Translations under genes and position numbers: made by a program
Notes under the pieces: generated by a model
What the model was told of the DNA's origin: nothing
Database searches by the model: none
The model's input: only the letters and a program-made list of their open reading frames with translations
Assembly: GCA_963836755.1 (NCBI GenBank)
Contig: CAWIKF010000002.1
Span: 1,376,001-1,440,000, forward strand
Direction of reading: 5' to 3'
Length of the DNA stretch: 64,000 bases
Source: an uncultured Verrucomicrobiae bacterium
Lineage (GTDB): Bacteria; Verrucomicrobiota; Verrucomicrobiia; Chthoniobacterales; Chthoniobacteraceae
Part shown: positions 46,561-64,000 of the stretch, one piece after another
How the letters are laid out: each line of letters begins with the position of its first letter
How positions within the stretch are numbered: the first letter of the stretch is position 1

Positions 46561-46768
46561 CCCGGGAGAGAACAAACCGCTCCTCGGAGCGAACGAATGG
46601 CTCCTCGGAACGGAGGAATGGCTGGCGGGAGCGGATGAACCGTTCCTCGGAGCGAACGGACCGCGCTTGGGAGCTGACGAACCGCTCTCCGGGGTGAACG
46701 GACCGCGCTTCGGAGCGGACGGACCGCGCTTCGGGGTAAACCGATGGCGCTTCGGCCTCTGCCGATCA
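46561..46768. repeat. Intergenic tandem array of about 10 degenerate 21-bp units
   Basis: Units such as ctcctcggagcgaacgaatgg and cgcttcggagcggacggaccg. Confidence 0.9.
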
Positions 46769-49078: not shown

Positions 49079-50050
49079 CTAATCTTCGTAGCCGCGCGGA
49101 TGCGCCACGTGCCACGCCCATGCGCTCTCGACGATTTTGTCGATGCTCTGGAACTTCGGCTGCCAGCCGAGCTCGCGCGCAATTTTTTCCGAGCTCGCGA
49201 TGAGCCGCGGCGGATCGCCCGGACGGCGCGGCTTTTCTATGACGGGAATTTCCTTGCCCGTCACCCGCTCGCACGCGGCGATCACCTCGCGCACGCTCGT
49301 GCCGCCGCCGGTGCCGAGATTGTAAAACGCGCTTTGCGTCGCGCCGAGCGCCAGCGTGTGCGCCTGCGCCAGATCGACGATGTGGATGTAATCGCGAATG
49401 CACGTCCCGTCCGGCGTTTCATAATCCGTCCCGTAAATCTCCACGTGCGGCTTTTGCCCGAGCGCGACCTTCAGCACATTCGGGATCAAATGCGTCTCGC
49501 ACCGATGATCCTCGCCATATTTTTCCGTCGCGCCCGCCGCATTGAAATACCGCAGCGCCACGAACCGCAGCGCGTGGATCTCGTCATACCAGCGCAGCAC
49601 TTTCTCGAACATCAGCTTCGACTCGCCGTAGGGATTGATCGGCCGCTGCGGCAAAGTTTCATCGATCGGCACCCGCTCCGGCGGACCGAACGTCGCGCAG
49701 GTCGAGCTGAAAACGAACCGCTTCACGCCAAATTCCAGCATCGCGTCCAGCAGGTTCAATCCGCCGTAAACATTATTGCGAAAATACTTCGACGGATTCT
49801 CCATCGACTCGCCCACCAGCGCGTTCGCGGCGAAATGCATCACCGCCTCCGGCTTCGTCTCGCGCATCGCATCGGCGATCGACGCGCGATCCTGCAGCTC
49901 GCCCACGATCAGCGTCGCGCGCGGATCGATTGCGTTGCGATGCCCCTCCGTGAAATTATCGAAAACAGTGACGGCATGGCCGAGGTCGAGGAGCTGCTCC
50001 ACGCAAATACTGCCGATGTAGCCGGCGCCGCCGGTGACGAGGATTTTCAT
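49079..50050 (-). CDS. galE: UDP-glucose 4-epimerase
   Basis: TGGAGYIGS, YGESK, LRYFNAAGA, DGTCIRDYIH. Confidence 0.96.
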   Translation of the reverse strand: MKILVTGGAGYIGSICVEQLLDLGHAVTVFDNFTEGHRNAIDPRATLIVGELQDRASIADAMRETKPEAVMHFAANALVGESMENPSKYFRNNVYGGLNLLDAMLEFGVKRFVFSSTCATFGPPERVPIDETLPQRPINPYGESKLMFEKVLRWYDEIHALRFVALRYFNAAGATEKYGEDHRCETHLIPNVLKVALGQKPHVEIYGTDYETPDGTCIRDYIHIVDLAQAHTLALGATQSAFYNLGTGGGTSVREVIAACERVTGKEIPVIEKPRRPGDPPRLIASSEKIARELGWQPKFQSIDKIVESAWAWHVAHPRGYED

Positions 50051-50101
50051 CGCCGTGCTTTGTCACCGCTTTCGCCCGCGGCGTCAAGGGGTTTGGGCGT
50101 G

Positions 50102-50250
50102 GCCAGTCATCAGTATTCAGTGCGTCAGTAGTCAGTGCGTCAGTAGTCAGTGCGTCAGTAGTTAAAGGCGTCAAGCCGCGCGAGTCTGACTGACCACTGA
50201 TTACTGGCAACTGATTACTGACTACTGGAAACTGGAAACTGGAAACGGAA
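50102..50250. repeat. Short tandem repeats arranged as an imperfect inverted repeat
   Basis: (cagtgcgtcagtagt)x3 facing actgattactg, actgactactgg and (ctggaaa)x3. Confidence 0.75.
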
Positions 50251-50371
50251 ATGCCTAAAAGCAAATCGAGCACTTTCTCCTCGCCACCCGTCTCACCGGT
50301 ATTCAAGATCCCCCCATGCGCCGCCTTTCAAAACGGCTACCAGAGAATTTGCAAGAAATAGACTGCGCGCC

Positions 50372-50389
50372 GTCTAATACTCGTTAGGC
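50372..50389 (+). other. attI-like simple site
   Basis: gtctaat-actc-GTTAGGC just before first cassette ORF. Confidence 0.55.
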
Positions 50390-50406
50390 GTATTTCGCAC
50401 CGCTCC

Positions 50407-50778
50407 ATGACAACCACGTCGCAACAAGCAGTCGTGACCTGCGCCGACAGCGTCAGCGTTATCTATAGCGAGTTTGGTATCTTGAAGACGGTTGTAGCTG
50501 CTATCACGTTCGTTGGCTTTGTGTTTCTTGGTCTGTGGATGCACGCTCTTTGGCTCGGAGTCGTCGGCATCCTTCTTATCGCGAGCTTCCTCGTTGTGCC
50601 GCACGTTTTCCGTATCCATCGCTTTCTGAGTTCGCTCCCATGTCCGGTCTGCGGTTTACCGGCCGGGAGATATATTTCGAGGATCTCCAGAATCTATATT
50701 CGGTGCAAGCATTGCGGGCACGAAGCTCCAACTGATTGCAAGTTCCTTTACGCCGGAGGACCACCGATTAAGCTATGA
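50407..50778 (+). CDS. Cassette 1: membrane protein with C-terminal zinc ribbon
   Basis: Two TM segments; CPVC and CKHC. Confidence 0.7.
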   Translation: MTTTSQQAVVTCADSVSVIYSEFGILKTVVAAITFVGFVFLGLWMHALWLGVVGILLIASFLVVPHVFRIHRFLSSLPCPVCGLPAGRYISRISRIYIRCKHCGHEAPTDCKFLYAGGPPIKL

Positions 50779-50800: not shown

Positions 50801-50918
50801 GCCTAACCATGCGATGCAGCTAACAGGCTCCGCGCGTCACGGTAGCTGCTCCCCGCAGACCCGCCACGGCAGCTACCGCGCCGCGCTCCGCCTGTAGCTG
50901 ATCTTGTTCTCGTTAGGC
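50801..50918 (+). repeat. attC site 1
   Basis: GCCTAAC...GTTAGGC, 118 bp imperfect palindrome. Confidence 0.92.
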
Positions 50919-50923
50919 ACCTA

Positions 50924-51598
50924 ATGCACGTTCCACCACATGCGAATCGGACGCCGGAACAAATCGTCGATGGCAAACGACTCTTCGATTCTGCGTGGCA
51001 TTTTTGGCAGGCGCTTTCTTGGTTCGACCACGCCAAACGCAAGACCAACATTACAGCCCTCCAATATGCCGCCCTCGAACTTCGCCTCGGCATCGAACAC
51101 CTCTGGTTCGACATCATCGTTACTGCTGTCGGCGGCAAATTGGACATCCGTGAGTATTCCCGCTGCAAGGGCGACTCCACCAAGATGTATAAGGTTCTCG
51201 ACCGCCTTTCCCCCGACCAAGCGAAACTCGTTCGCTTCACCAATATCTCTGGATCGCTCGACCCCAATCAACCGCCGCTCATCGAATGGGACATCCCACG
51301 GCTCAAACGACTTCACGGAGAGACTTCCCAGTATCTGCACTTTCTTGGCATCCCCCCCGAAACCACCGACAGCCCCAAATGGTTTGTCGCGGCGCTCACG
51401 CTACTTGAGACAGGCGCGGATTACATTTGGCACCACCTTACGACCGCCCGCACGGGCCAACTCAACATCGACTCGATGCCACCCGAGGTTCGAAATACTT
51501 GGGAGGCTTTTCGAGTCGGTCAGCTCGACGAGGATTCAGTCCGCACTCGACTGCAACTCGCTCAACCCGTTCTCCGCAAGCGAAGGCGCGGCGCCTAA
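50924..51598 (+). CDS. Cassette 2: hypothetical helical protein
   Basis: Fills the space between attC1 and attC2; stop codon inside GCCTAAC. Confidence 0.85.
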   Translation: MHVPPHANRTPEQIVDGKRLFDSAWHFWQALSWFDHAKRKTNITALQYAALELRLGIEHLWFDIIVTAVGGKLDIREYSRCKGDSTKMYKVLDRLSPDQAKLVRFTNISGSLDPNQPPLIEWDIPRLKRLHGETSQYLHFLGIPPETTDSPKWFVAALTLLETGADYIWHHLTTARTGQLNIDSMPPEVRNTWEAFRVGQLDEDSVRTRLQLAQPVLRKRRRGA

Positions 51599-51715
51599 CC
51601 ATGCGCTGCAGCGAACCGCTCCGGGCGTCACGGTAGCTGCTTCCAGCCACCGCCTTTCCCCACCATGCAGCTACCGCGCCGCCCTCCGCAGTCGCTGAGC
51701 TTGGGGTCGTTAGGC
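51593..51715 (+). repeat. attC site 2
   Basis: GCCTAAC...GTTAGGC, 123 bp. Confidence 0.92.
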
Positions 51716-51735: not shown

Positions 51736-52269
51736 ATGCAACGAACGTTCTACGCAACTGCTGATGACCTTCTTCCCGTCTTCGAGCGCGTCGAGAAGCG
51801 ACACAGCCTCGCCTACACGCTTCGTGGCCTTTTCGAGTCACCCACGCTCACAACCGTCATGTCTGGCGCTGCCATTCCCACCCTTCACGCGCCTGCTCCG
51901 ATGTCGAGCGCATCGGGCTGCCATCACTATCTTGCCACTCCGTCCACTGCCTCAGTCCATCTTCGCGAGGTGCCACAGGTCCGCGGCGGCATCCGATACA
52001 CGTTCGATCAGGCTACTACGCCGGATAGCGTCGAGGTTACGCCGGGCGGTTTTTATCGTCCCGACGTGTTGCTCTATGGTCGGGTCGCCACCATTTCGAC
52101 CACCGTGTTCTCCAAGCAGGTGTATCGCGCATTCGCGTCCGCCATCGCAGCTCAGTTTGTTCGCATCCGCGCGTTCTATGTCGGCCCGCAGGCGGCAGAG
52201 TTATTCCATCGCGGCTGCCGTCTTACTATCGGCGCAGACTCACCAACAGAATACGATTTGGCCGCATGA
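51736..52269 (+). CDS. Cassette 3: hypothetical protein
   Basis: 177-aa ORF bounded by attC2 and attC3. Confidence 0.85.
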   Translation: MQRTFYATADDLLPVFERVEKRHSLAYTLRGLFESPTLTTVMSGAAIPTLHAPAPMSSASGCHHYLATPSTASVHLREVPQVRGGIRYTFDQATTPDSVEVTPGGFYRPDVLLYGRVATISTTVFSKQVYRAFASAIAAQFVRIRAFYVGPQAAELFHRGCRLTIGADSPTEYDLAA

Positions 52270-52285
52270 GCAATCAGACCGCAAC

Positions 52286-52403
52286 GCCTAACAATGCGCT
52301 GCAGCGAACTGTTCCGGGCCGTCACGCCTGCTGCTCCCGGCAGAGCCCACCGCGCAGCAGTCATGCCGTCCCTCCGCAGTCGCTGAGCTTGGAGGCGTTA
52401 GGC
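52286..52403 (+). repeat. attC site 3
   Basis: GCCTAAC...GTTAGGC, 118 bp. Confidence 0.92.
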
Positions 52404-52423
52404 GTCGCTCGCCGCTCGTGCTA

Positions 52424-52915
52424 ATGAACATCGAAATCCGACAAGCCGAGGTTCGAGATACCGAGCGAGTTTCGAGCGTTCTTATCGAGGCAGCGGATTG
52501 GCTTCGAGAGCGCGGCATTCCGATGTGGCGCGCTGACGAGTTAGCTCCAGACCGCATTACCTCCGACGTTGTCCGTGGAGACTTCTTTGTTGCGGAGTCT
52601 GGCGACGAGATTGCAGGCACCGTGAAGTTCCAGCTACAGGACGACCTCTTTTGGCCGGACACTTCCGCAGACGAGGCAGCTTTTATCCATCGCCTCGCAG
52701 TGCGGCGTTCATACGCTGGCGGACACATTTCCGGCGCGCTGCTACGGTGGGCGACAGACCGGGCACGCAGTTACCATCGGCGCTATCTCCGTCTCGACTG
52801 CGAGGCATCGCGGCCTCGACTCAGGGCGGTTTACGAGCGATTCGGATTCCGCCATCACAGCGACCGACAGGTCGGGCCATACTTGGTCGCCCGCTACGAA
52901 CACGAACTTCAATGA
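52424..52915 (+). CDS. Cassette 4: GNAT acetyltransferase
   Basis: FIHRLAVRRSYAGG, LRLDC, YERFGF. Confidence 0.9.
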   Translation: MNIEIRQAEVRDTERVSSVLIEAADWLRERGIPMWRADELAPDRITSDVVRGDFFVAESGDEIAGTVKFQLQDDLFWPDTSADEAAFIHRLAVRRSYAGGHISGALLRWATDRARSYHRRYLRLDCEASRPRLRAVYERFGFRHHSDRQVGPYLVARYEHELQ

Positions 52916-52928
52916 CTCCAACCGCAAC

Positions 52929-52978
52929 GCCTAACCATGCGCTGCAGCGACGGCTGCGGCTGTCACGCTGGCTGCTCC
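52929..52978 (+). repeat. attC site 4, left arm only
   Basis: gcctaaccatgcgctgcagcga...gtcacgctggctgctcc; homology stops abruptly. Confidence 0.88.
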
Positions 52979-53087
52979 TGTAACCACGCGAAATTATTGA
53001 AAAGGGTCGGAATGTGCGGCCTTGGTTCGTTATGAAAAGGGTGCGCGTCACGTCAAGTAAAAGGGTCATAACACCGCCGAAAGTAAC

Positions 53088-53275
53088 GATGGCGGCCGGT
53101 CCGCGGAGACTCCGCGAGGCGTTCGCGGGAATAGCAGCGACTTCGAACCGCAAGCGGTTTATCCTCACTTGCGAGCGTTGCCCTTTCGCTTAGCCTTTTA
53201 ACTGCCGCGAGGGAGCCGGCAGTGGCTATTCCTTCAACGCCGGCCGGTGTGACTGATCCCGCACGTCCGGCCATT
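53088..53275. ncRNA. Candidate structured RNA
   Basis: At least six nested helices in a region with no credible ORF. Confidence 0.5.
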
Positions 53276-53278
53276 TCT

Positions 53279-53719
53279 TTACGAGTTCAGAAAAGCCCAG
53301 AGCGCCTGCAAAAATGCGCGTCCGGCGTCGTCGGGATGCTGGCTTACGCCTGCGCAAATTCCGCCGTCAGGCAGGTGCGACCCAAATGTCACGAGGAAGT
53401 CGTCGTCAAACGTCGGCTGCGTGCCTTCATGCGCGGCGATGATCGTGCCGCCTGCATCCGTCGTCTCCGGCACTTCGACGGGCGTCGAGCCGCTGACGTG
53501 AGCATTCTGCAACCAGTCGATGATGATCGGGAAATCCACTATCTGCGGCGATGGTGCCCATGCTTGCAGCCCGGCGACCATCTGCGGCCACGCCGTTTGC
53601 AGTTCCGTAGGCAGATCGGCGACAGCGACCGCGCGCGAGCGGTTGATCCCGTCGATGGTTTGATATGCCGCTGCGCTTTGACAGTTGGCGGCTATGAAAA
53701 TTTGTCGTGTCGTCTTCAT
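53279..53719 (-). CDS. Phage hypothetical protein downstream of tail fibre
   Basis: ATGA overlap with upstream gene. Confidence 0.75.
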   Translation of the reverse strand: MKTTRQIFIAANCQSAAAYQTIDGINRSRAVAVADLPTELQTAWPQMVAGLQAWAPSPQIVDFPIIIDWLQNAHVSGSTPVEVPETTDAGGTIIAAHEGTQPTFDDDFLVTFGSHLPDGGICAGVSQHPDDAGRAFLQALWAFLNS

Positions 53720-55335
53720 GGAACTTTTTGGAAAAAGATGAACGAACTTTTCCGCAGATAGACCGGGTTCGCCGCGTCAGTGGCCGAGCGCTGGGCAACT
53801 TGAAAATGAATCGTCGTCGATGAGCTGAAGACGAGCATCCCTTGCGAGACATCCAGAGCTGTCTTCTTAGGCGCGTCCGCAAATGGCTGGACGGCATATT
53901 GAGCCAAACTCGCTCCATAACGGAAATAAGTCGTCGCCAGCGAGGGATTGGCCGAAGCGGAGCCATTGTCCTGCGTCGTCGAGTTATAGATTTGGAAAAA
54001 ATAATCCGAGTCCGAGCATTCCGTCGTGAGACTTAGGAGCGTGTTTATTCCACCGGTCGTCGATGCGGTGTCCGCATGCACAATGCCGTAAAAACGATAA
54101 GTGCCTGCCGGCAGTGTGACAGTGTCGGTGCCGTCAACAAATGTCGTCGAGTTCGCCGAGAAATCAGCGCTGATGATCAGTTTGTAAAACACGCCAACCC
54201 GAGCATCGAGCTGCGCAGTCGTGATGAGATCGCTGCTCGCGGGCGTGACGCCGACTTGGTTGGGAGCCGTATTATGAGTGCCGCTCGCTACAATGTTTCC
54301 ACTCGCCGCGACGGGACCGTTGAGGTTGATCGTGCCGGTGCCGTTCGGCGACAAATTGATGTTGCCGTTGTTCCCGGTAGAGAGCGTGAAATTCCCGCTC
54401 GAATCGAACGCGCCCTGGATCGTCTTCGATCGGACCGTGGTGCCATCGCTGTCGATCTCGATCCAGTGGTTGTTGACGGCGACCATCTGCGAGTTCGCGA
54501 CGATCGTGCCGGCAGCCGCGTCCACCTTGCGGATCAAGCATTGAAAATTCGTGCCGAGATTTGCGGCCGTGTCGAGCGTGACGACGATGGAACTTGTCCC
54601 CGTGGTGACGTCGAAAACCGTTCCGCAATCAGCGGCCGCGACGGAGAAATTCGCCGACTTCGCGACATGCTTTGAAAACGGAGTTTTGAGATTCGTTCGA
54701 ACGGTCGCGACGTTGGAAAAATCGCTTCCGTTGTTGCTGGTGATGACGAGATTTGTCGGACTCGTGAACGCGGAAATCTGGCCGGCCGCGCCAATCGTGA
54801 CCGAGCCGTTGCCCACCGAAAAGGTGCCACTGAACGCCGTGTTGCTCACGTTGGAAAGACCGACTTTCGTTTTGCTCAAAGTCAGCCACGCGGGATCTGA
54901 ATAGCTGCCGGTGGAGACGACGAGGTTCGTCGGATTGGTAAACGCGGAAACCTGCCCGGCCCCGCCGATCGTGATGGAGCCGTTGCCTGCCGAATAGGTG
55001 CCGCTGAATGCGGTGTTGCTGACGTGTTCGAGACTGACCTGGCTCGCGCTCAAATTCCAGAGCCCGCTGCCGTCGCCAGCGACGCCGCTGAAAGTCACCC
55101 AGTCGCCACTTGGAGCGTTGCCGAGCGTGAGCTGCGTGTTACCGAGATCGAGAGAACCGGAGTTATTCGCGACCGCGTTAAGCTGGTCATTGGAAAGGAG
55201 CAAGCCGTTCGCACTTCCGAAAGTCGCGGCGTCCACCGGGCCTTTGATGAGGCCAGTGCCATCGACAGTGAGCGTCTTCGTCTGCGCCATCGCACAGACC
55301 GGAAGCAAAAGAAGAAAAAGTAATCGTTTAAACAT
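53716..55335 (-). CDS. Putative tail fibre/adhesin with signal peptide
   Basis: G/S/T/N-rich; duplicated 37-aa unit; MFKRLLFLLLLPVCAMA leader. Confidence 0.7.
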   Translation of the reverse strand: MFKRLLFLLLLPVCAMAQTKTLTVDGTGLIKGPVDAATFGSANGLLLSNDQLNAVANNSGSLDLGNTQLTLGNAPSGDWVTFSGVAGDGSGLWNLSASQVSLEHVSNTAFSGTYSAGNGSITIGGAGQVSAFTNPTNLVVSTGSYSDPAWLTLSKTKVGLSNVSNTAFSGTFSVGNGSVTIGAAGQISAFTSPTNLVITSNNGSDFSNVATVRTNLKTPFSKHVAKSANFSVAAADCGTVFDVTTGTSSIVVTLDTAANLGTNFQCLIRKVDAAAGTIVANSQMVAVNNHWIEIDSDGTTVRSKTIQGAFDSSGNFTLSTGNNGNINLSPNGTGTINLNGPVAASGNIVASGTHNTAPNQVGVTPASSDLITTAQLDARVGVFYKLIISADFSANSTTFVDGTDTVTLPAGTYRFYGIVHADTASTTGGINTLLSLTTECSDSDYFFQIYNSTTQDNGSASANPSLATTYFRYGASLAQYAVQPFADAPKKTALDVSQGMLVFSSSTTIHFQVAQRSATDAANPVYLRKSSFIFFQKVP

Positions 55336-55342
55336 AAGAAAA

Positions 55343-56005
55343 TCAGGCTTCGCCGGCTGCGATCGAGAACGTCTCCGCTCCGGCCGCGCCGGAGACTGTG
55401 ATGGTGTGGAAAAGGCTTTGATCCGCGTTCCAGAGCTGCCAACTCCCATCGTCCTTTATCCGGTATTTTCCCGCGACCGTTTTGAGCGCGAGCGCGCCGG
55501 GCAATGGATAAGGCGGATCACCATCCGCATCCGCGCCTTCTGTGCCTTGATAGACGCGTGCTTTGCCGAGCACCGGAAATTCATAGCTGAGCCGCTTTGT
55601 ATTGCCGGCGTTCTGAACTTGGATTTCCGCAAGCACCTGCACGGGATCGGTCGCGGCGGCGGTGAGGAAAGCGGAGACGTTGAGATCGAGATCGGCCTCG
55701 TAGTAGTATTCCCCGTCACTCTGCGTTTCGGTAAACGGCGTGGCTGAAAAAAAACTAGCACCCGTGAGAGCATCAGCCTCCTTGCCATTGAGCACGATCT
55801 GATCGCCGGCATCGATCTGAGCGCCGACCAGCGGGCCGCCTGGCTCCGTTGGCTCATCGCAAAGGTGGACGCGCAGCGTGAAGTGGTCGCCCGGAATCCA
55901 AGTGATTGTGTCGCGCGGCGTCTGGTCGGCCTTGCTGACAACGAGCGGGTTATCCGAGCCTTTGCTCTTGCGCACGAAAATCTCAAAAAGAAGGGCAAAA
56001 GCCAT
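55343..56005 (-). CDS. Phage hypothetical, possible baseplate/fibre adaptor
   Basis: Acidic beta-rich ORF immediately upstream of the fibre gene. Confidence 0.6.
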   Translation of the reverse strand: MAFALLFEIFVRKSKGSDNPLVVSKADQTPRDTITWIPGDHFTLRVHLCDEPTEPGGPLVGAQIDAGDQIVLNGKEADALTGASFFSATPFTETQSDGEYYYEADLDLNVSAFLTAAATDPVQVLAEIQVQNAGNTKRLSYEFPVLGKARVYQGTEGADADGDPPYPLPGALALKTVAGKYRIKDDGSWQLWNADQSLFHTITVSGAAGAETFSIAAGEA

Positions 56006-56069
56006 TACAAAGCGCAGAGCATGCACGCCGGCGTTCATCGCCGCACGCGACGGTGCGAATGGGGCGAAC

Positions 56070-56360
56070 TTAGCGCGTGAGCCGGTTCAACGCGTCGCGC
56101 CGATTTGCGCAGTCGCTGCCGGCGATAAGCGTCCCCGTTTTGTCCAGGCACGGGAGGTGGAGCAGTTTCGCGAGCGGCTTGGCCAGGATTTCAATCGCAT
56201 CGCCGAGGCCCATCTTTTCACAGTCGCGCGAATATTTTCCCCAGCCTGAGACCTTGCAGCTCGCGCATGGATCGCGAAAGAAATCGGGCTCATGCGCGCA
56301 GCCAACTCGCGCGCACATATCTGCGCGGATGTGCGCAACGGTCGCGGGCATCGTTCTCAC
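56070..56360 (-). CDS. Small Cys-rich phage protein
   Basis: Seven Cys; GLGDAI...CANRRDALN; overlaps upstream stop. Confidence 0.7.
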   Translation of the reverse strand: MRTMPATVAHIRADMCARVGCAHEPDFFRDPCASCKVSGWGKYSRDCEKMGLGDAIEILAKPLAKLLHLPCLDKTGTLIAGSDCANRRDALNRLTR

Positions 56361-57100
56361 AGCGGGCTCCCGTTCGGTTTGAGATCAGGATCGGGCCGCG
56401 TGCTGCCGTGATCGTTGTCCACTGGATCGTCCGGCTCATAGCCTTTGACGCAGCTCCATTTCTTGATGTCGTAAAACAGATTCCCGTTTGCATCGGGCTC
56501 AGTCAGCTCGGGCAGATCGTGAGAGATCAGGTTTGCGACATCGCCGGCGCCCTTTGTCGGATCTGGCCAGCATGGGTTTCCTGTGCCGTTCCATTCGTAG
56601 GTGTCGATGTCGGTGAGCTCGTCGGGTCCGCCATCGTCGCGGACAAACCGGCTGCGGATCCAGATTTTCAAAAAGCAATCCGATGCCGGCGCGTGCTGAA
56701 GTTTTCCTTTTGTCCGTTTAATTGAGTAACTGTAGTCACCATCAGGAAGTTCTCGGGAAGCAAAGCAACCGCCTGTGAATGTTCCAGGATAGTCAGGAAG
56801 ATCATCGACTGTCTTTGAAATCAGCGTCGCCGTGAGATAAGGCTCCGAATAAATGGTGCTGGGCGGATCTCCGGTGGGACCTCCGGTTGTATAAACAACG
56901 GTCGTGCCAGTTCCGTCATCATGGTAGGTTGTCGTCCTAATGTTTCCGGCGCCGTCATAGTAAGTCTCGACCGTCCATTCAGCAAAAACTCCGTCTTGAT
57001 ACGCAGAGATGCCAATCTTTGTTCGCGATGCACTGATGCTGTCGCAGACGATGTTCCAGTCGCACTGAATGGCGGAGCAGTTTCCGCACGGCGCGATCAT
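56357..57100 (-). CDS. Phage hypothetical tail-region protein
   Basis: ATGA overlap; N-terminal Cys cluster; acidic. Confidence 0.75.
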   Translation of the reverse strand: MIAPCGNCSAIQCDWNIVCDSISASRTKIGISAYQDGVFAEWTVETYYDGAGNIRTTTYHDDGTGTTVVYTTGGPTGDPPSTIYSEPYLTATLISKTVDDLPDYPGTFTGGCFASRELPDGDYSYSIKRTKGKLQHAPASDCFLKIWIRSRFVRDDGGPDELTDIDTYEWNGTGNPCWPDPTKGAGDVANLISHDLPELTEPDANGNLFYDIKKWSCVKGYEPDDPVDNDHGSTRPDPDLKPNGSPL

Positions 57101-57741
57101 GCTGCCTCGTAGCTGCCGAAGGTGTATGTCCAGGCCGCATCATCATCCTTGTCCACATCGCGATTGCGGCAGGCGATCACAAGTTGGGAGCCGATGCCTT
57201 TCGTGCCGCTGCCGATCGCGACGGAGGTATCGCCGCTCGCGTCAAAATCACCTAGCGGGATGCAAAGCTTCGTGCCGCTATTTGCGGGGATTGTAGCACC
57301 TTCGTTGATCTCGATGTCGGTGACTTGCGGTGCGTCACCAGAGTTGTCGATCGTGAGCTCGATCCAGGCGAAATTGTCGTCATTGGCGACTTCGTCCTCA
57401 TAGGGAGGATCGCCGCCGGCCGTCATGCCGCTCGGCAATCCCGTAAGTCCGCTGGCTAGAGTCAGCGCGCCTCCCACGGCGATCAGCCCGTTTGAAACGC
57501 CGATCTTTTTAGTGACGCTGCCGCCGGTTTTTGTCGAGGCGTCGGAAAGCGCAAAGCTGTTGAGCACGGCTGCCGCGCCACGCCCTGGTTGGACCCGGAG
57601 TTGATGAGTGGTTCCACCAGCGCCGACAGACGGCATGATGTCCGGACTTGGGCGGGGGTAGAATGAACGAAGCAGCGCATTGACCTGCCCCGCCCAGCGC
57701 GGCACATCCTCCCAGCGCGTTGGGATGGTGGGCAGTTGCAT
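57097..57741 (-). CDS. Phage hypothetical tail-region protein
   Basis: Starts 2 nt after upstream stop. Confidence 0.75.
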   Translation of the reverse strand: MQLPTIPTRWEDVPRWAGQVNALLRSFYPRPSPDIMPSVGAGGTTHQLRVQPGRGAAAVLNSFALSDASTKTGGSVTKKIGVSNGLIAVGGALTLASGLTGLPSGMTAGGDPPYEDEVANDDNFAWIELTIDNSGDAPQVTDIEINEGATIPANSGTKLCIPLGDFDASGDTSVAIGSGTKGIGSQLVIACRNRDVDKDDDAAWTYTFGSYEAA

Positions 57742-57743
57742 CT

Positions 57744-58478
57744 TTAGCTGTCCGCGTAGAGATCGGTGTCCCAAAGCGTCGCGCCGGTCCACTCTTGCAC
57801 CCGTGTCCACGTCCGGTCGCGCGTGGCGCGATCTGCCGTCTTCAAATAAATATAGCCATTCACCTTGCAGCCGGAGGGTGGATCGTTGCGCAGCCCGCAT
57901 TCCGAAACATCGGGCTTGCTCGCGTGTTTTGTAGTAACCCTGCACAGCGGCGAGTAGATGACAAAGCTGTCCGTGCCGTGCTTGAGCTTGTCCACGAAAT
58001 CCGTCGCGTTTCCGCTCACCCCGCTATTGCTCGTGAGCTTTGCGTAAGCCGCCGTGCGCAAGCTCGCAGACGCAGCGTTTTTCCATTCTTCGATCGCATC
58101 GAGATCGGCGTCATTGAGCGCTTTTGCTCCTCCATCGAGGTAGCGCGGATGTGTCTCGAGCTTCTTTTGAACTTCGATCCACTCCACTTCGAAAACCGCA
58201 TTGGTATCAAACGTGTAGTCCTGGATCGGCGCTGGCGTCATCGTCACCGTCATGGTGCCGGTGCCACCGGGACCTTTCTCGACGCGCACCGTATCGACAA
58301 AATAAGTCGATGCCACGCCCGAGATGTTTGAAAGGCGCGCCGGCAGGTTTCCCATGATCGCCGTGTAAGGCCCCTTGTAAATTAGCGTGTAGCGAGGCCC
58401 TTCCTTGCTCGTTTCAAAGAGCCGCGAGTTGGCCTGCTCTTTGACATCCGTGGTTCCTTTCCAGCGTGCAGTGGGCAT
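57744..58478 (-). CDS. Phage tail protein following tape measure
   Basis: Position and tight gene packing. Confidence 0.7.
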   Translation of the reverse strand: MPTARWKGTTDVKEQANSRLFETSKEGPRYTLIYKGPYTAIMGNLPARLSNISGVASTYFVDTVRVEKGPGGTGTMTVTMTPAPIQDYTFDTNAVFEVEWIEVQKKLETHPRYLDGGAKALNDADLDAIEEWKNAASASLRTAAYAKLTSNSGVSGNATDFVDKLKHGTDSFVIYSPLCRVTTKHASKPDVSECGLRNDPPSGCKVNGYIYLKTADRATRDRTWTRVQEWTGATLWDTDLYADS

Positions 58479-58481
58479 GGC

Positions 58482-60278
58482 TTAGACGGCGCTCCACTCG
58501 GGAAGACCGGCGGGAGTGATGCGCGCGCCGATCACTTGCACGAAGGTGGCAAACTGTTTGACGAGCTGGCCGGTATTTTCAGCAGTCTTGCGCGCATGAT
58601 CATTTGCAGGGCCGCCAGCGCCTATGAAACCGCCGATCTTTGAAAGGCGATCGCCTTCCTCGAAACGGCCTTTGCGCGCAGGTGAGCCGGAATAATCCTT
58701 CACATTGGCGAGGCCGCCGCCTTTGACTGCGGGCGGCTCTTTGACGCCGGGCGGGAGCGATTTTTGCAGTTCCGTCCAAAGCTTGCTGAGCCTTTCCTGC
58801 AACTCCTTTGGCGCGGTCATGAACACTTGTTTAAATCCATCGTCCCACGCTTTTTTGAGCGCGGCGGGATCGATGTATTTTGCCGCGAGCACTTCTTTCA
58901 AATGCTCGCCAGCCTTGCGGAAAGATTCGCCGGCAGTGTCCTTGTAACTGGAAATAATGTCATCGAGCGGGCCGCCCTTTTGCAGCATGTAGTTGTAGCG
59001 GTCGCCCACGTCCGGTTTGCCAAACGCGACGCCGGCCGCGGCATCGGATTTCTTGTGCACCTCCGCGTATTGATCCTGCAAATCGAAGTAGGTCTTATCC
59101 ATCGTGGGCCGCTTCCCGATGGCTTTTTGAAGCTGCTCCATCTGCGCCTGGTAGCCGTCAAATTCCGTTTTTGCGCGGCTCTTCATCGGGTCGATTTTCC
59201 CCTGGCTCAACGTCGCCACCGATTGCTCAACCTCCGCCTCGAGCGCCGCGATCGGGCGCTTGAAAGCGGTCATCAACACGGCCTCCACTCCGGAGAATGC
59301 GGCCTTGATCATTTCGCCCACGCTCGACCAGAAATCGCCGTCGCTGAGGATCGCCATTCCTTCGGCCACCGCCTCCTGCATGACGTTGATTTCGCCCGCC
59401 CATGCGCGCGTTAAAAAATCCATCCCTTCCGCAAAGCCAACCTGCAAGCTCAAGCTGAGCAGCTCCGAAAGTTTTCCATTGTTAAACGCCGCGTAGAGCG
59501 TCTTCACGGCCCCGCCCAGCGCCTCTCCGAAGCCAGTCAGGTTGATTGATTTGAGCTTGTCGAGCAGCGGCAAAAGCACCGGCGCCACCTGCTCTGCAAA
59601 GCCGGCAAAGAAGCCTTTGACCTTTGCGCCCAGCGCCTCGAAACCGTTGGCAACCTTTGTAAAAATCTCCGCGTTGCGCTGCATGATGGTGCCCATGCCG
59701 CCGGCGAGTTGCGTAGCTTCCTTAATTGCATCGGGCTTGCCGAAGAGGTTCAGCATGTCCGCACCGCCGCGCCCAAAGATTGCCTTGATCGCCGCCATCT
59801 TGGTTGATTGATCGCCCAGGCCGTTGATCGCCTGGCCGATCGCCTCAAACTGCTCCGCCGCGCTTTTGCTTTTCAGGCTCTCCATGTCGAGCCCGAGCTG
59901 GTCGAAAATTTTCTTAGTCGGCTGCCCTTCCTCATTCACGCCGCCGAGCGCCGCCTGCATCATCGCGAGGTTCGCAGTCAAGTTGCCCGCATCCATTCCC
60001 GCCTCGCTATAGGCTTTTCGTAAGATGACCAGGTCGCGAATGCTCTGGCCCGTGGTTCGGCTTTGCGCGCCGAGCTCCTTGCCGGCGTCGAAGATTCCCT
60101 TGAGCCCCTCCGTAAAACCTTCGGCGCTTTTGAAGGCGGCGAAACTCACGCCGATCACGCCCAGGATGCCGGTCAGTTTTTCCGCCACGCCGCGAAAGCT
60201 TTCCATGCCACGCTTCGCCCCCTCGAGCGGGTTCATAAAACCGGCGCTGTTGAGCGTCATCGTGGCGGCGAGATTCAT
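58482..60278 (-). CDS. Tail tape measure protein
   Basis: 598-aa Ala/Gly/Leu-rich helical; FDQLGL, AIFGRGG. Confidence 0.85.
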   Translation of the reverse strand: MNLAATMTLNSAGFMNPLEGAKRGMESFRGVAEKLTGILGVIGVSFAAFKSAEGFTEGLKGIFDAGKELGAQSRTTGQSIRDLVILRKAYSEAGMDAGNLTANLAMMQAALGGVNEEGQPTKKIFDQLGLDMESLKSKSAAEQFEAIGQAINGLGDQSTKMAAIKAIFGRGGADMLNLFGKPDAIKEATQLAGGMGTIMQRNAEIFTKVANGFEALGAKVKGFFAGFAEQVAPVLLPLLDKLKSINLTGFGEALGGAVKTLYAAFNNGKLSELLSLSLQVGFAEGMDFLTRAWAGEINVMQEAVAEGMAILSDGDFWSSVGEMIKAAFSGVEAVLMTAFKRPIAALEAEVEQSVATLSQGKIDPMKSRAKTEFDGYQAQMEQLQKAIGKRPTMDKTYFDLQDQYAEVHKKSDAAAGVAFGKPDVGDRYNYMLQKGGPLDDIISSYKDTAGESFRKAGEHLKEVLAAKYIDPAALKKAWDDGFKQVFMTAPKELQERLSKLWTELQKSLPPGVKEPPAVKGGGLANVKDYSGSPARKGRFEEGDRLSKIGGFIGAGGPANDHARKTAENTGQLVKQFATFVQVIGARITPAGLPEWSAV

Positions 60279-60447
60279 GTGGCGGCCTCCAGTCTGGCCG
60301 GATTCCCAGCGTGCGCACGCGACGCCGCGAATGATGCGCGCGCGGGCCCACCTCGCGCAAAATGGCGATGCTGGCCAGCCTCGCTTTTTCCGGCGATAGC
60401 CGCCGGGCAGTTATCGCCAGAAAAAGCGATGCGTGCGATCGAGAAGT

Positions 60448-60954
60448 TTACCGGCGCAGCGGAGTGGCCGGGATCGCGGCCGTGAGATCGAAGCGCATCA
60501 CGTAGCCGACCGTGGGCAGCTCAAAGGCGAGCTCCGGGCTTGGAAACGGTTTGCAACCTTTGTAAAACAACCGTCCGTAGGTGAAGTCCTCCGGAAACGC
60601 CAGGCTCCGCACCCGCGCGCGCAGATCGGCGAGAAGTTTCAAAAACGCCGGGTCATCCTTCGTCCCTTTGACCAGGCTTTCACCGGGGTTGATCCGCATT
60701 CCCTTTGCCTTGATGAGCCAGACCTCGAAATGGTTGTCCACAATGCCGGCTTCCTCATGCCCGGCCTGGTCGTCATCACCCGACCAGCAAAGCGTGACAC
60801 GGAAACTCTTCGGCGCATCAGCCAGGCTTTCGAGGACGTCGCCCGGATCGCCGGCGATCGAGATAACGCCTTTGCGCGGCGTGCACCAGGAAGTGAGATC
60901 GGACTGCAAATGCACGAGCAGCCCGGCGGGATCGGGTGTGAAGTCAGTTTGCAT
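60448..60954 (-). CDS. Putative tail completion/terminator protein (Mu gp37-like)
   Basis: Size, alpha/beta pattern and context. Confidence 0.55.
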   Translation of the reverse strand: MQTDFTPDPAGLLVHLQSDLTSWCTPRKGVISIAGDPGDVLESLADAPKSFRVTLCWSGDDDQAGHEEAGIVDNHFEVWLIKAKGMRINPGESLVKGTKDDPAFLKLLADLRARVRSLAFPEDFTYGRLFYKGCKPFPSPELAFELPTVGYVMRFDLTAAIPATPLRR

Positions 60955-61702
60955 CAGCGGCGTTTTTGCGGGGCGTTGAGTTTCTCGAGCGCAGCCAATA
61001 GCTCCTGCTCAGCGTAAGTAGGTCCCGATGGCTCGAGGTCGTAGCGCGCGGCGATCGCCGAGTAGAGGACGAAGCCTTGCGCGAGCGGGACTTGATCGAG
61101 CACATGATCGGGGCTCCAGGCGGGGTATTCGTGAGCGAGCGTGTCAACGAGGCTTACGAGCCAGCCGTGCCCGGACTGTTTGCCGGGGCCGTGGGAAAAG
61201 GGGAGTTTGGATCACGACTCACTTTCTGGCCGTGCGGAACCGCGGTGCCAAAGGCGGCAACGAGGTGCGCGTTTAAAATCTCGCCGATCTGCGGCAGTAA
61301 CGCCGCATCGATCGTGGCGGCGAGTTCAAACACTGCGTCGTCAAACCGCGGGCGAAAGATTTTTCCGGTGAGCGGGTCGATCTCCGCGATCGCGGTGAGC
61401 GCGCGCACGTGCGCGATCGGCTGGCTCATGACGAAGAGCGCGGCAAAAATATCCTCGACGTTAAACTCTTCGCTTTTCTCGGTCTTGAGCAGCGAGGAGC
61501 CGATTTTTTGCAACTGCATGATCACCGCGCCGGTGCACGGTTGCAGCGGCAGTTTGCCGACCCTCACCTCATCGGGGCAAAAAGCGTTGAGCACCAATGC
61601 CGGCGTGCTCGAGGTCGATTTCTCGCGGTGCGCGGCCGCTGCCTCGACCTGGGCTTTGCTAAAGCCAAGAGTTTTTTTGCTGCGCTTCTTTACAGCTGGC
61701 AT
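60954..61702 (-). CDS. Tail assembly chaperone G (61702-61154) with -1 frameshift extension GT
   Basis: In-frame C CCT TTT at 61202-61196; -1 frame open to a TGA overlapping the next ATG. Confidence 0.8.
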
Positions 61703-61708
61703 CGCGCG

Positions 61709-62254
61709 TTACGGCGTGGGGATGCCGCTCCACTGCGTGCCTTTGATCGTGTATTTGGCGACACCCTTGTTTTCCCAATTTTTCTCCATGTCAGTCACGA
61801 TCACGGCTGTATTGCCGGCGATGGAAACCACGTCTCCGCGTGCAAAAACAGGGAAGGCGGTCTGCACCAGCACAGTCGCTTCGCACTCGTGCTTGTCATT
61901 GAAAAGCACGACCGCGACGGTGAAGCCGACATCGTCCGGAATCTCGACCATCTCGCCGGTGAGCTGGTCGCGCACGCTTTGCAAAATACCGGTGACGGTG
62001 CTTCCGACTTTCCCGCGCACACCCCACAGCACGGAGCTATCACCCTTGATCGTGGCCACGGTGGTATGCAGCCGGTGCCCGCGCAGGAGCATGGGCACCG
62101 TCGCGCAGAACGCGAAAAAGAGAGCGAACGCAAAAAGCGGAGCGCCGGCGGATGCGAGCGTAAACGCGAGCGCCATCACCACGAGCATCAGGAGCTGCGT
62201 CCAGAACACGCGGTGAAACAAAAAGTGGATGACCAGGATGCGGAGGAAAGGCAT
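61709..62254 (-). CDS. Putative tail tube protein with hydrophobic N-terminal extension
   Basis: About 120-aa beta-rich domain immediately upstream of the chaperone gene. Confidence 0.65.
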   Translation of the reverse strand: MPFLRILVIHFLFHRVFWTQLLMLVVMALAFTLASAGAPLFAFALFFAFCATVPMLLRGHRLHTTVATIKGDSSVLWGVRGKVGSTVTGILQSVRDQLTGEMVEIPDDVGFTVAVVLFNDKHECEATVLVQTAFPVFARGDVVSIAGNTAVIVTDMEKNWENKGVAKYTIKGTQWSGIPTP

Positions 62255-62255
62255 G

Positions 62256-62696
62256 TTAAACAGATGTTTTGCCGGTGGCGCTGCTCGTCTTTGCGGGTGC
62301 TGCGATCACGGTCCCGCTCGGTTTTGCGCGTTGGATTTGCGGGGTGAGCGGCTGCTCGCCCTTCGCGATCAAAGTCAGCTTGCCAGTCTCCGGATCGCGG
62401 AGCTGGTTGGCCTGTTTGGTAAACGGGTTTTCATCCGCGCTTTTGCCGCGGCGCTGGTGGATCATCTCGCACGCGAAAATCTTCGCGGCCTCGGTGACCA
62501 CCTTCGGGATCGGCATCGCAAACGGCGTCTCAAACCGGCCGCCCAGGATGGAATCGACCGCGTCGCTCGCGCCCTGGCATACGAGGTTGATCGCCGTGGG
62601 ATCAGCCGCGCCGTCGCCGTCGTCGTCCAAGCCTTCGATGAGGAATTTGCACGGGATCAACCCGGACAAATCCGCCATCGTGATATAAGGAGGCAT
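62256..62696 (-). CDS. Mu gp36-like head-tail adaptor
   Basis: YITMADL, ASDAVDSILGGRFETP, LIAKG; after capsid gene. Confidence 0.8.
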   Translation of the reverse strand: MPPYITMADLSGLIPCKFLIEGLDDDGDGAADPTAINLVCQGASDAVDSILGGRFETPFAMPIPKVVTEAAKIFACEMIHQRRGKSADENPFTKQANQLRDPETGKLTLIAKGEQPLTPQIQRAKPSGTVIAAPAKTSSATGKTSV

Positions 62697-62740
62697 CGTT
62701 TTAAAAAATCAGTTGTTCGCTTTTTACGGACAACTTGGGT

Positions 62741-63688
62741 TTAGAGCGCCGCAGTCGCGCCGGTGGAACCGAAGGCAAACTCCGGCATGCCGTAGCCGGC
62801 GTTGTAGATGCCGTAAGCCTGGTAGATGAACTTGTGGTTCAGCACCACATAGCTGTCGCCCGGCTGGTTCACCGCGACCAGGCGAGGCATGAATATGTTT
62901 TGCAACAGGAAAGGCCGCATCACGTAGCCGACCTCGAGGAGGAACCACATGTTCGGGTTTGCCGCGAGCTGCGGCCAGACCTTCAAGGTCGCATCGCCCT
63001 TGCGGGTGTTTGACACCGCAGCGGAGGCGATGTTCTCGGTGCCGGCGACGTTCTGCGCGGTTTGCGCGACGTAATCGGCCTGCAAGATTTGCTTGCCCAA
63101 GGTCTCGTTTTGCGGCGCGACCACCAGGATCAACTTGCGGCCCAGGTTCATCGGGCGGCCCTTCGCATTGAGGCGGCTCTTGATGTTCGTGCGTGCGGCA
63201 TCAAAACTCGCGGCACTCAACTTATAGGTCGCCTTGTTCGTAAACGGCGTGCCGTTTTGCAGCGGAAGATGGTTCGCATCGAAGAAGTTTTTGCCGGTGT
63301 AGCATGGGCTGGTGAAGCCGTTGATCATCAGATCAGCCATCAGCTCATCGGGATGCTGCGCGGCGACGTCGCCCATGGTGGCGAAGAGCGGCGCGTAGAG
63401 ACCGAGGCGGTCGGTCACGATGTCGAGCTCTTTGACTGCGATCGTGTTTTCCCACTCCTTGTTTTTGACGGTGAATCCGTTCGCCGAGAGGTTCTCGAGC
63501 TGGATTTCATCGACCAGTTCCTTCATGCCGCTGATCGCGCCCAGGAAGTCGTAAATCTCCTCCTTGTTCGTGCTCGGCACGGTGAGCGTGATGTCCTGGT
63601 ATTGTGGCGAGCCAGCCTGGTAGGCTTTCTCGTAAATAACGCGGAAACCACGGGTGAGGTTTGCGAGATTGGCTTGATTGATTTGCAT
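62741..63688 (-). CDS. Mu gpT-like major capsid protein
   Basis: VPST-EE-YDFLG, NKEWENTI, CYTGKNFFDANH, WFLL, YNAGYG. Confidence 0.9.
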   Translation of the reverse strand: MQINQANLANLTRGFRVIYEKAYQAGSPQYQDITLTVPSTNKEEIYDFLGAISGMKELVDEIQLENLSANGFTVKNKEWENTIAVKELDIVTDRLGLYAPLFATMGDVAAQHPDELMADLMINGFTSPCYTGKNFFDANHLPLQNGTPFTNKATYKLSAASFDAARTNIKSRLNAKGRPMNLGRKLILVVAPQNETLGKQILQADYVAQTAQNVAGTENIASAAVSNTRKGDATLKVWPQLAANPNMWFLLEVGYVMRPFLLQNIFMPRLVAVNQPGDSYVVLNHKFIYQAYGIYNAGYGMPEFAFGSTGATAAL

Positions 63689-63734
63689 GATTTTTTAGGA
63701 GCTGCGGATTTGGAAAAAAGGTTGAAACGGTTGT

Positions 63735-64000
63735 TTACGTGAGCTTCGCGAGCATCGCGACCACGTCCGCCTGGAGCGCGTTGTATTTCGCCTTCAGGTC
63801 ATTCGCGAGCGCCTCGGAGGTTGCGAGATCGACCGCGGCGGCAGTGGTGCATTGCGCGCTGGTGGGCGTGTATTTGACCGAGCCGGCGACTGAGCGCGTG
63901 TCGATCCAGACGTTGCCTGTGACCGGGTCGATGTCGGTGATGCGGCCGGCCTTCACCTTGTTATTGGCGCCCACTTTGCAGACTGTCGAATCGTCCTCGA
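63735..64000 (-). CDS. Probable capsid decoration protein (partial)
   Basis: AGRITDID...VWID; directly upstream of capsid gene. Confidence 0.55.
   Translation of the reverse strand, partial: EDDSTVCKVGANNKVKAGRITDIDPVTGNVWIDTRSVAGSVKYTPTSAQCTTAAAVDLATSEALANDLKAKYNALQADVVAMLAKLT

Follow-up and report, generated by a model that had tools for sequence, protein, structure and literature searches.

We found a predicted Mu-like prophage lodged in the center of an attC site of a gene cassette array and flanked by a 4-bp target site duplication, a scar that is firmly established for its family. On balance, we favor reading the junctions as a transposition scar, likely of a 4-base stagger, in the center of attC4, left by a family whose target choice is loosely biased, with attC middles and the 3' flanks of tRNAs as hotspots that are not required for insertion.

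A Mu-like prophage in the attC4 site of a cassette array

The window is the whole 64,000-bp stretch of DNA that was analyzed (G000:C2:1376001-1440000, where G000 is the source genome and C2 the contig), and coordinates without a contig refer to it. The focal prophage spans 39,445 bp (C2:1428979-1468423), of which the left 11 kb are in the window (52979..64000). The features of the array and the prophage are as follows.

50351..50390, + strand: attI-like site heading the array, 90% identity over 40 bp to the attI beside the intact intI
50407..50778, + strand: cassette 1 ORF, 123 aa, membrane protein with a C-terminal zinc ribbon
50801..50918, + strand: attC1, 118 bp
50924..51598, + strand: cassette 2 ORF, 224 aa, no family found
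51593..51715, + strand: attC2, 123 bp
51736..52269, + strand: cassette 3 ORF, 177 aa, no family found
52286..52403, + strand: attC3, 118 bp, intact
52418..52915, + strand: cassette 4 ORF, GNAT acetyltransferase (PF00583, E 1.5e-13)
52929..52978, + strand: attC4 left half (R'' core, L'' box, left stem), from alignment with the genome's other attC sites
52975..52978, + strand, second copy at C2:1468424-1468427: 4-bp target site duplication CTCC, attC4 positions 47-50
52979..53070, + strand: prophage left end, TGTAACC terminus and three AAAAGGGT repeats, a motif also found at relatives' left ends
58482..60278, - strand: tail tape measure protein (phrog_9483, E 5e-13)
62256..62696, - strand: Mu gp36-like head-tail adaptor (PF07030)
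62741..63688, - strand: Mu gpT-like major head protein (PF10124, E 1.7e-56)
C2:1443624-1445213: Mu F-like head protein
C2:1452726-1453712: MuB-like ATPase (PF13401 AAA_22; phrog_296 'DNA transposition protein')
C2:1453961-1455733: MuA-like transposase, 590 aa (phrog_310, E 9e-11)
C2:1464599-1466747: terminase large subunit as two ORFs, 346 and 288 aa
C2:1466754-1468301: portal (Portal_Mu)
C2:1468424-1468491: attC4 right half, beyond the window

No intI adjoins the attI-like site, and galE lies upstream (49079-50050). The one intI above the cut-off genome-wide is an intact single copy at C2:765056-766015, 660 kb from the array, so the array is integrase-less and, as an attC cluster without adjacent intI, is a CALIN by definition. 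It extends downstream of the prophage to about C2:1480400, and this part includes a second short attI-like junction (C2:1471630-1471660). The genome has many separate attC clusters, with 45 paired sites. Short intergenic tandem repeats are present in the window after a glycoside hydrolase-like gene (46560-46760, units of about 21 bp) and upstream of the array (50100-50260, units of 15, 7 and 6 bp).

By its predicted MuA-type DDE transposase, MuB-type neighbor, Mu-type head genes and length, the focal element is a Mu-like transposable phage. Beyond the window it also encodes protease I (Mu-like_Pro), Gam, a ParB-like gene and a CI-like repressor, and the MuB-like AAA+ gene adjoins that of the transposase. 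The best Foldseek match to the AlphaFold model of the transposase (pLDDT 79) was the Mu transpososome (4fcy, E 4.8e-12), followed by CAST and Tn7 TnsB, with 10-14% identity to solved MuA/TnsB in the structural alignment; a PDB sequence search with the transposase profile gave no match. Residues D174, D175, D234 and E306 are invariant in 26 family transposases. Imperfect inverted copies of a AAAAGGGT-like motif are present at the right end, which places repeats at both ends, and the AAAAGGGT repeats are likely transposase-binding sites.

At its C-terminus, the Mu F-like head protein contains a PI3/PI4-kinase-like domain (PF00454, E 9e-7). The terminase large subunit is also split over two ORFs in the relative G002 (C28, C19), the gene order of which differs from that of the focal prophage by a large inversion. 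In G002 the repressor and transposase are beside the left end and all late genes have the same direction; the focal phage has tail genes at its left end and the early region in the middle. A second prophage of the source genome (C2:about 1802000-1852000) has an integrase-like gene and lambda-like head genes, as read from ORFs, and the genes at 53197-55025 of the window have 85-93% DNA identity to it, an apparent sign of recent tail-gene exchange.

The initial annotation had placed a Mu-like prophage in the middle of an attC site, and both ends, the gene content and the matching right arm agree with this. As described there, attC4 matches attC1 and attC3 to 52978 and then gives way to phage DNA, with TGTAACC starting at 52979. 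At the far end (C2:1468423) the prophage closes with ...GGTCTAA, followed by CTCC, the attC right arm ending in GTTAGGC and further cassettes. The arm and the cassettes had been predicted correctly; the predicted CA terminus and 5-bp duplication GCTCC had not, as the terminus is AA and the duplication is 4 bp, CTCC. The next 80 kb contain 17 CAGCTCC sites that could combine a CA end with a 5-bp duplication, and the prophage ends at none of them. A second TGTAACC, at C2:1848514, was rejected as a Mu end and is within another, integrase-type prophage. Contigs of runs X2, X3 and X5 (three studies) carry an unbroken attC4 with a single CTCC, which fixes the duplication at 4 bp.

The rejoined attC4 (left half and right arm, 114 bp) aligns with 12 other attC sites. 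It is an attC by its R''/R' cores, L''/L' boxes, predicted bottom-strand hairpin with extrahelical bases and position after a cassette ORF. Its bottom strand folded at -46.1 kcal/mol, the most stable among 13 attC sequences folded (others -23.2 to -41.0). The duplicated CTCC sits at the foot of the terminal loop, within the variable terminal structure, and this central loop region fits the earlier proposal of Mu-type transposition near the hairpin apex that split the array. Each half of the split site, together with the adjoining phage DNA, folds at just -11.8 or -22.3 kcal/mol. With attC4 unable to fold, the stretch between attC3 and attC5 would become a single 40-kb unit made up of cassette 4, the prophage and cassette 5. 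The earlier view that cassette 4 is immobilized is upheld to the extent that its own site no longer folds, but attC3 and attC5 are intact and the three could leave together, in which case the host's distant IntI would have to move the unit whole.

It is highly improbable that the junctions arose by misassembly at the attC repeat or through the integron integrase. What could suggest either is that attC arms are repeats, that on the bottom strand the right end, GTTAGAC, resembles a recombination core, and that the right junction falls exactly between the G and the TT of a GTTRRRY motif. In addition, a contig of run X1 (L002:10272-10493, record 6), which crosses the right junction with zero differences (X1 may be the window's own sample), contains the same prophage right end and half attC and then runs into a cassette absent from the source genome, and the next two G000 cassettes had no cover in this run. 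This contig may come from a strain whose array differs or from an independent insertion at an identical base, or it may be a join made through the shared attC arm. Against both origins, the two attC4 halves pair base for base into a single attC, an empty site with one CTCC exists, the focal terminus agrees with the register of relatives' ends, and the same 4-bp scar is found at 19 other sites unrelated to the GTTRRRY motif. An IntI crossover leaves no duplication, which counts against junctions made by the integrase.

Scar length and termini across the prophage family

Prophage ends were called by weight matrix, and the far ends of relatives were then compared. All 20 family prophages for which both ends were called had a target duplication of 4 bp, and none had one of 5 or 6 bp; the rule of TG...CA ends with a 5-bp duplication, on which the initial annotation had relied, fails here. 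Among 21 locus pairs, 16 had a 4-bp duplication (15 distinct sites, as L064 and L066 are one), four were without a confident end pair in the stretch examined, and one virus record (L116) had unmatched flanks; the 15 sites together with G000, G002, G202, G467 and G156 make up the 20, in which G175 is also readable as 5 bp in a register one base off and the right end of G165:C116 is a third-ranked candidate picked by the duplication match. A complete relative with the same 30-bp sequence on both flanks (G093:C18), probably reflecting insertion in a repeat or an assembly effect, was excluded from the count.

The termini vary across the family, with TG, CG, GG, CA and CC on the left and CA, CG, TG, GG, CC, TC, AG and AA on the right. 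Only G002 and G202 (2/20) have TG...CA ends, and since family termini vary so widely, the AA of the focal prophage (TG...AA) need not be a defect. Three pairs of records (L133/L218, L126/L128, L136/L225), all relatives and not the focal phage, share a right end but differ in the flanks, a pattern that may reflect replicative transposition and virions whose host ends vary. Most record titles of relatives are from Verrucomicrobiota, and others are from Kiritimatiellae and Lentisphaerae. The closest homologues, compared at the protein level, are P0083 (portal 71%), P0002 (transposase 66%) and P0206. Transposases 46-61% identical to the focal one were also present in open frames of ~820 aa (G362:C47, G400:C183, G427:C192, P0003 and similar), and in the stretch examined around those of G362, G400 and G427 there was no MuB-like or Mu portal match. 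These are possibly another kind of element with the same enzyme.

The family is like the Mu/B3-type phages (saltoviruses) in its MuA-fold DDE transposase, MuB-like ATPase, Gam, Mu-type portal, F, protease I, gpT and gp36, as well as in the 39-kb focal genome (Mu-like range about 36-39 kb), repeated end motifs and short target duplication. However, the duplication is 5 bp in Mu and 6 bp in B3 and Leptospira prophages (PMC8705779), with 5-6 bp given for transposable phages in general (PMC13626063), and Mu/B3-type ends are TG...CA, to which the TA-TA of Leptospira is a known exception (PMC8705779). Because these phages are Mu-like in their working but without the Mu/B3 scar length and TG...CA ends, we file them as variant transposable phages. 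They are best read as a variant group of Mu-like phages, new in its 4-bp duplication, from Verrucomicrobiota and their kin. We found no transposable phage with a 4-bp duplication in the literature searched, though the large survey of Zhang et al. 2023 (PMC10284936) and supplements of other papers may include such cases.

Insertion in attC sites and beside tRNA genes

A bias of the family towards attC is likely; it is based on three further insertions, of which one has an uncertain terminus and two are known from a single end. In G002, from the same genus (portal 49%, transposase 59% identical to focal), an attC left arm precedes the left end and a right arm follows the right end; the two ends are on separate contigs, which the duplication ACAC (positions 62-65 of a 123-bp attC) connects. 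In a virus record (G182; L120 = L196), 76 bp of attC right arm come after the right end, and the array then continues with at least five more attC. The end motif of G181 (L118) lies, in opposite orientation, no more than about 16 bp from an attC left arm; its score is below the end-calling threshold and its terminus uncertain, and it is a probable fourth attC insertion. The four insertion points (47, 62, about 52 and about 39-55) all fall between about 39 and 65. Where distances could be taken, they are about 52-70 bp to the R' core and 47-65 bp to R''. In the transposase tree, the source genome and G002 form one sister pair and G181 and G182 another, each with 100/99 support, and one clade of all four was rejected (p-AU 2.7e-12, two long-branch rows dropped from 26). 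The portal tree likewise separates the attC cases. G090 and G202 are not among the sequences in the transposase tree.

G166 was rejected as a fifth case, since its cassettes are inside the prophage, which ends beside a tRNA. In G166:C25:2343-5991 (L070, L428), the DNA between the portal gene and the right end contains cassette-like ORFs accompanied by one or more full attC sites, as well as a 441-aa ORF that by eye resembles an IS transposase, which suggests capture of cassettes inside a related Mu-like phage. Junction-pattern scans of IMG/VR returned 69 and 16 stretches with no real attC-phage junction, the second pattern being too strict to recover L120. Left-end motif scans gave eight viral and seven genomic matches, with an attC flank at the source genome only.

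Most ends, however, are elsewhere. The DNA downstream of 179 portal loci gave 122 ends with a score of 12 or more; 106 of these were non-duplicate, and 79 were above the genome null (13.6) with a flank of at least 60 bp (more than 1 kb in 47), some of which are probably lytic-cycle flanks. Three of these 79 right ends, the focal one included, are in attC and 76 are outside. The initial annotation had raised recurrent attC targeting; insertion does recur, in G002, G182 and probably G181, but strict targeting is excluded for the family. As two relatives are clearly and a third is probably in attC while most are not, the phages likely favor attC without depending on it.

attC DNA makes up 0.13-0.24% of the source genome. 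If all hosts were this attC-rich, 0.19 matches would be expected among the 79 ends (P(>=2)=0.016, or P(>=3)=0.001 with G181 counted), a mixed-host non-coding null gives 0.3 (P(>=3)=0.004), and the most generous null, with all hosts as rich as G000 and only non-coding DNA tolerated, gives 1.6 (P(>=3)=0.21), all of which overstate the excess because related phages were treated as independent. Of 32 hosts counted, only G000 (26 motif matches) and G002 (15) were attC-rich, both with the prophage in attC, and the other 30 had 0-3 matches (control 0-4), a comparison weakened by relatedness among the hosts and by the frequent loss of attC arrays from MAG assemblies. In G467 (four matches) the prophage is in a gene and not in attC. 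The close relatives G090 (partial transposase 60%, portal 59%) and G202 (53%) are also outside attC, in hosts with zero and two matches. As an attC-rich test host, G030 was rejected, with only a portal/terminase remnant and no end. The attC-rich G376, G103, G422 and G456 were left uncounted, because their transposase matches are distant and those belonging to the order sample gave no portal match.

The 3' flanks of tRNA genes are a second hotspot of the family, statistically stronger than attC. The right ends of six relatives (L051, L062, L073, L099, L102 and G166:C25) are found past a tRNA 3' end, at a distance of 24-57 bp and all in one orientation, where 0.03 were expected (0.28 on a non-coding null), so target choice in the family is non-random. 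Five are among the 79 ends, and the sixth, L062, had been dropped as a duplicate of a short-flank record. The tRNAs are of the types Val, Ser, Gly, Glu, Ser-like and Pro-like, the last two incomplete. In G157, a tRNA-Ser is 140 bp from the left end. There was no consensus across 17 target sites and no hairpin excess over shuffles at 15 empty sites outside attC (z -2.1 to +1.7), and this comparison leaves family-wide hairpin targeting unsupported. The attC site of G002 itself scored z +0.5 (80-bp window).

Could insertion be near-random, with the attC cases reflecting chance and survival in dispensable cassette arrays? We regard this as possible but doubtful. It would account for the 76 of 79 ends outside attC, the differing insertion points within attC, the P of 0.21 on the most generous null and the lack of hairpin bias at other sites. 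Yet survival gives attC no advantage over the several times longer cassette genes, and the array-associated called ends are in attC itself. ORFs of more than 600 aa contain at least four of the 20 sites with both ends called, showing that insertions are not confined to non-coding DNA, and the tRNA excess, which holds even on the non-coding null, is a real bias. Less probable still is that the two attC-inserted sub-lineages (G000/G002 and G181/G182) evolved dedicated attC recognition, for example by a transposase/MuB reading the folded site or bound IntI, although strict attC targeting could apply to these two only. The two well-supported sister pairs fit this, as does the attC location of the prophage in each of the two attC-rich hosts where one could be called, and the MuB-like proteins of the attC-inserted phages are 56-69% identical to the focal one, with 44-50% in G093, G154 and G202. 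Rejection of a single clade argues against it, as do G090 and G202, though their hosts are attC-poor and both are absent from the tree. Furthermore, no gene was confined to attC-inserted phages among the eight prophages compared, and the longest exact match between attC4 and the focal prophage was 13 nt, which is at chance level, though short split guides would be missed. TniQ (PF06527) was found in none of five genomes or records, yet control genomes likewise gave none.

Under the favored reading of a transposition scar and a loose family bias, target capture would be biased and not programmed. The transposase and its MuB-like partner may capture duplex DNA that is locally flexible or melted; a duplex target rather than a hairpin stem is suggested by the clean duplication at one point. 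Mu transpososomes bind at least 33-fold more tightly to flexible or mismatched DNA (PMC5357137), and attC folds from single-stranded DNA or extrudes as a cruciform after its terminal structure melts (PMC8946536). Alternatively, the phages may land about 50-70 bp from a folded or protein-bound landmark, and MuB loading beside it would fit the R'-core distances and similar tRNA T-arm distances. A stronger version, which we consider rather unlikely, is that the 4-bp-stagger lineages actively steer lysogenic insertion to safe landmarks, namely attC centers where the host is rich in attC and tRNA 3' flanks in other hosts, without TniQ/TnsD or guide RNA, and that an attC-inserted prophage would join a giant cassette shuffled or deleted by IntI.

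Known elements at repeats and attC sites, and implications

The Pseudomonas phages Ab30 and 2P1 are similar in that insertion is mostly scattered, with hotspots tied to a palindromic repeat (BIME); for Ab30, 5% of events are at hotspots 55-61 bp from the BIME motif (PMC5977238). In this family the repeat is instead attC, with insertion inside it, and the evidence is from resident prophages and not from mapped replicative events. IS1111-attC elements (ISKpn4, ISPst6) and group IIC-attC introns are also mobile elements in array attC sites, but are RNA-guided or retroelements with a set position near one attC end (bioRxiv 2024.04.26.591405; PMC8876359). Here, a 39-kb phage with a DDE transposase takes variable positions at attC centers and leaves a 4-bp scar, and most family members are elsewhere; the fixed insertion point shared by essentially all members of attC-specific elements was not found. 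Prophages of Vibrio anguillarum (Va_90-11-286_p16) and Shewanella (M16-3) are likewise next to or carry attC arrays, but with whole attC repeats flanking or with cassettes carried, and the available text of that study reports no transposable phage splitting attC (PMC9892861). In the open-access articles searched, we found no transposable phage that had inserted into attC.

The 5/6-bp scar and TG...CA ends serve to find and delimit transposable prophages (PMC8705779), and ProBord assumes 5-6 bp cores for them (PMC13626063). Because detection relies on these features, a 4-bp, variable-end family would be mis-delimited. The family transposase is also a natural test of how the Mu/TnsB transpososome sets cut spacing. 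If attC centers are true hotspots, these would be phages exploiting integron recombination sites, as reported for IS1111 elements and group II introns, and insertion there would be a route for prophages to split or freeze cassette arrays, or to be purged by IntI.
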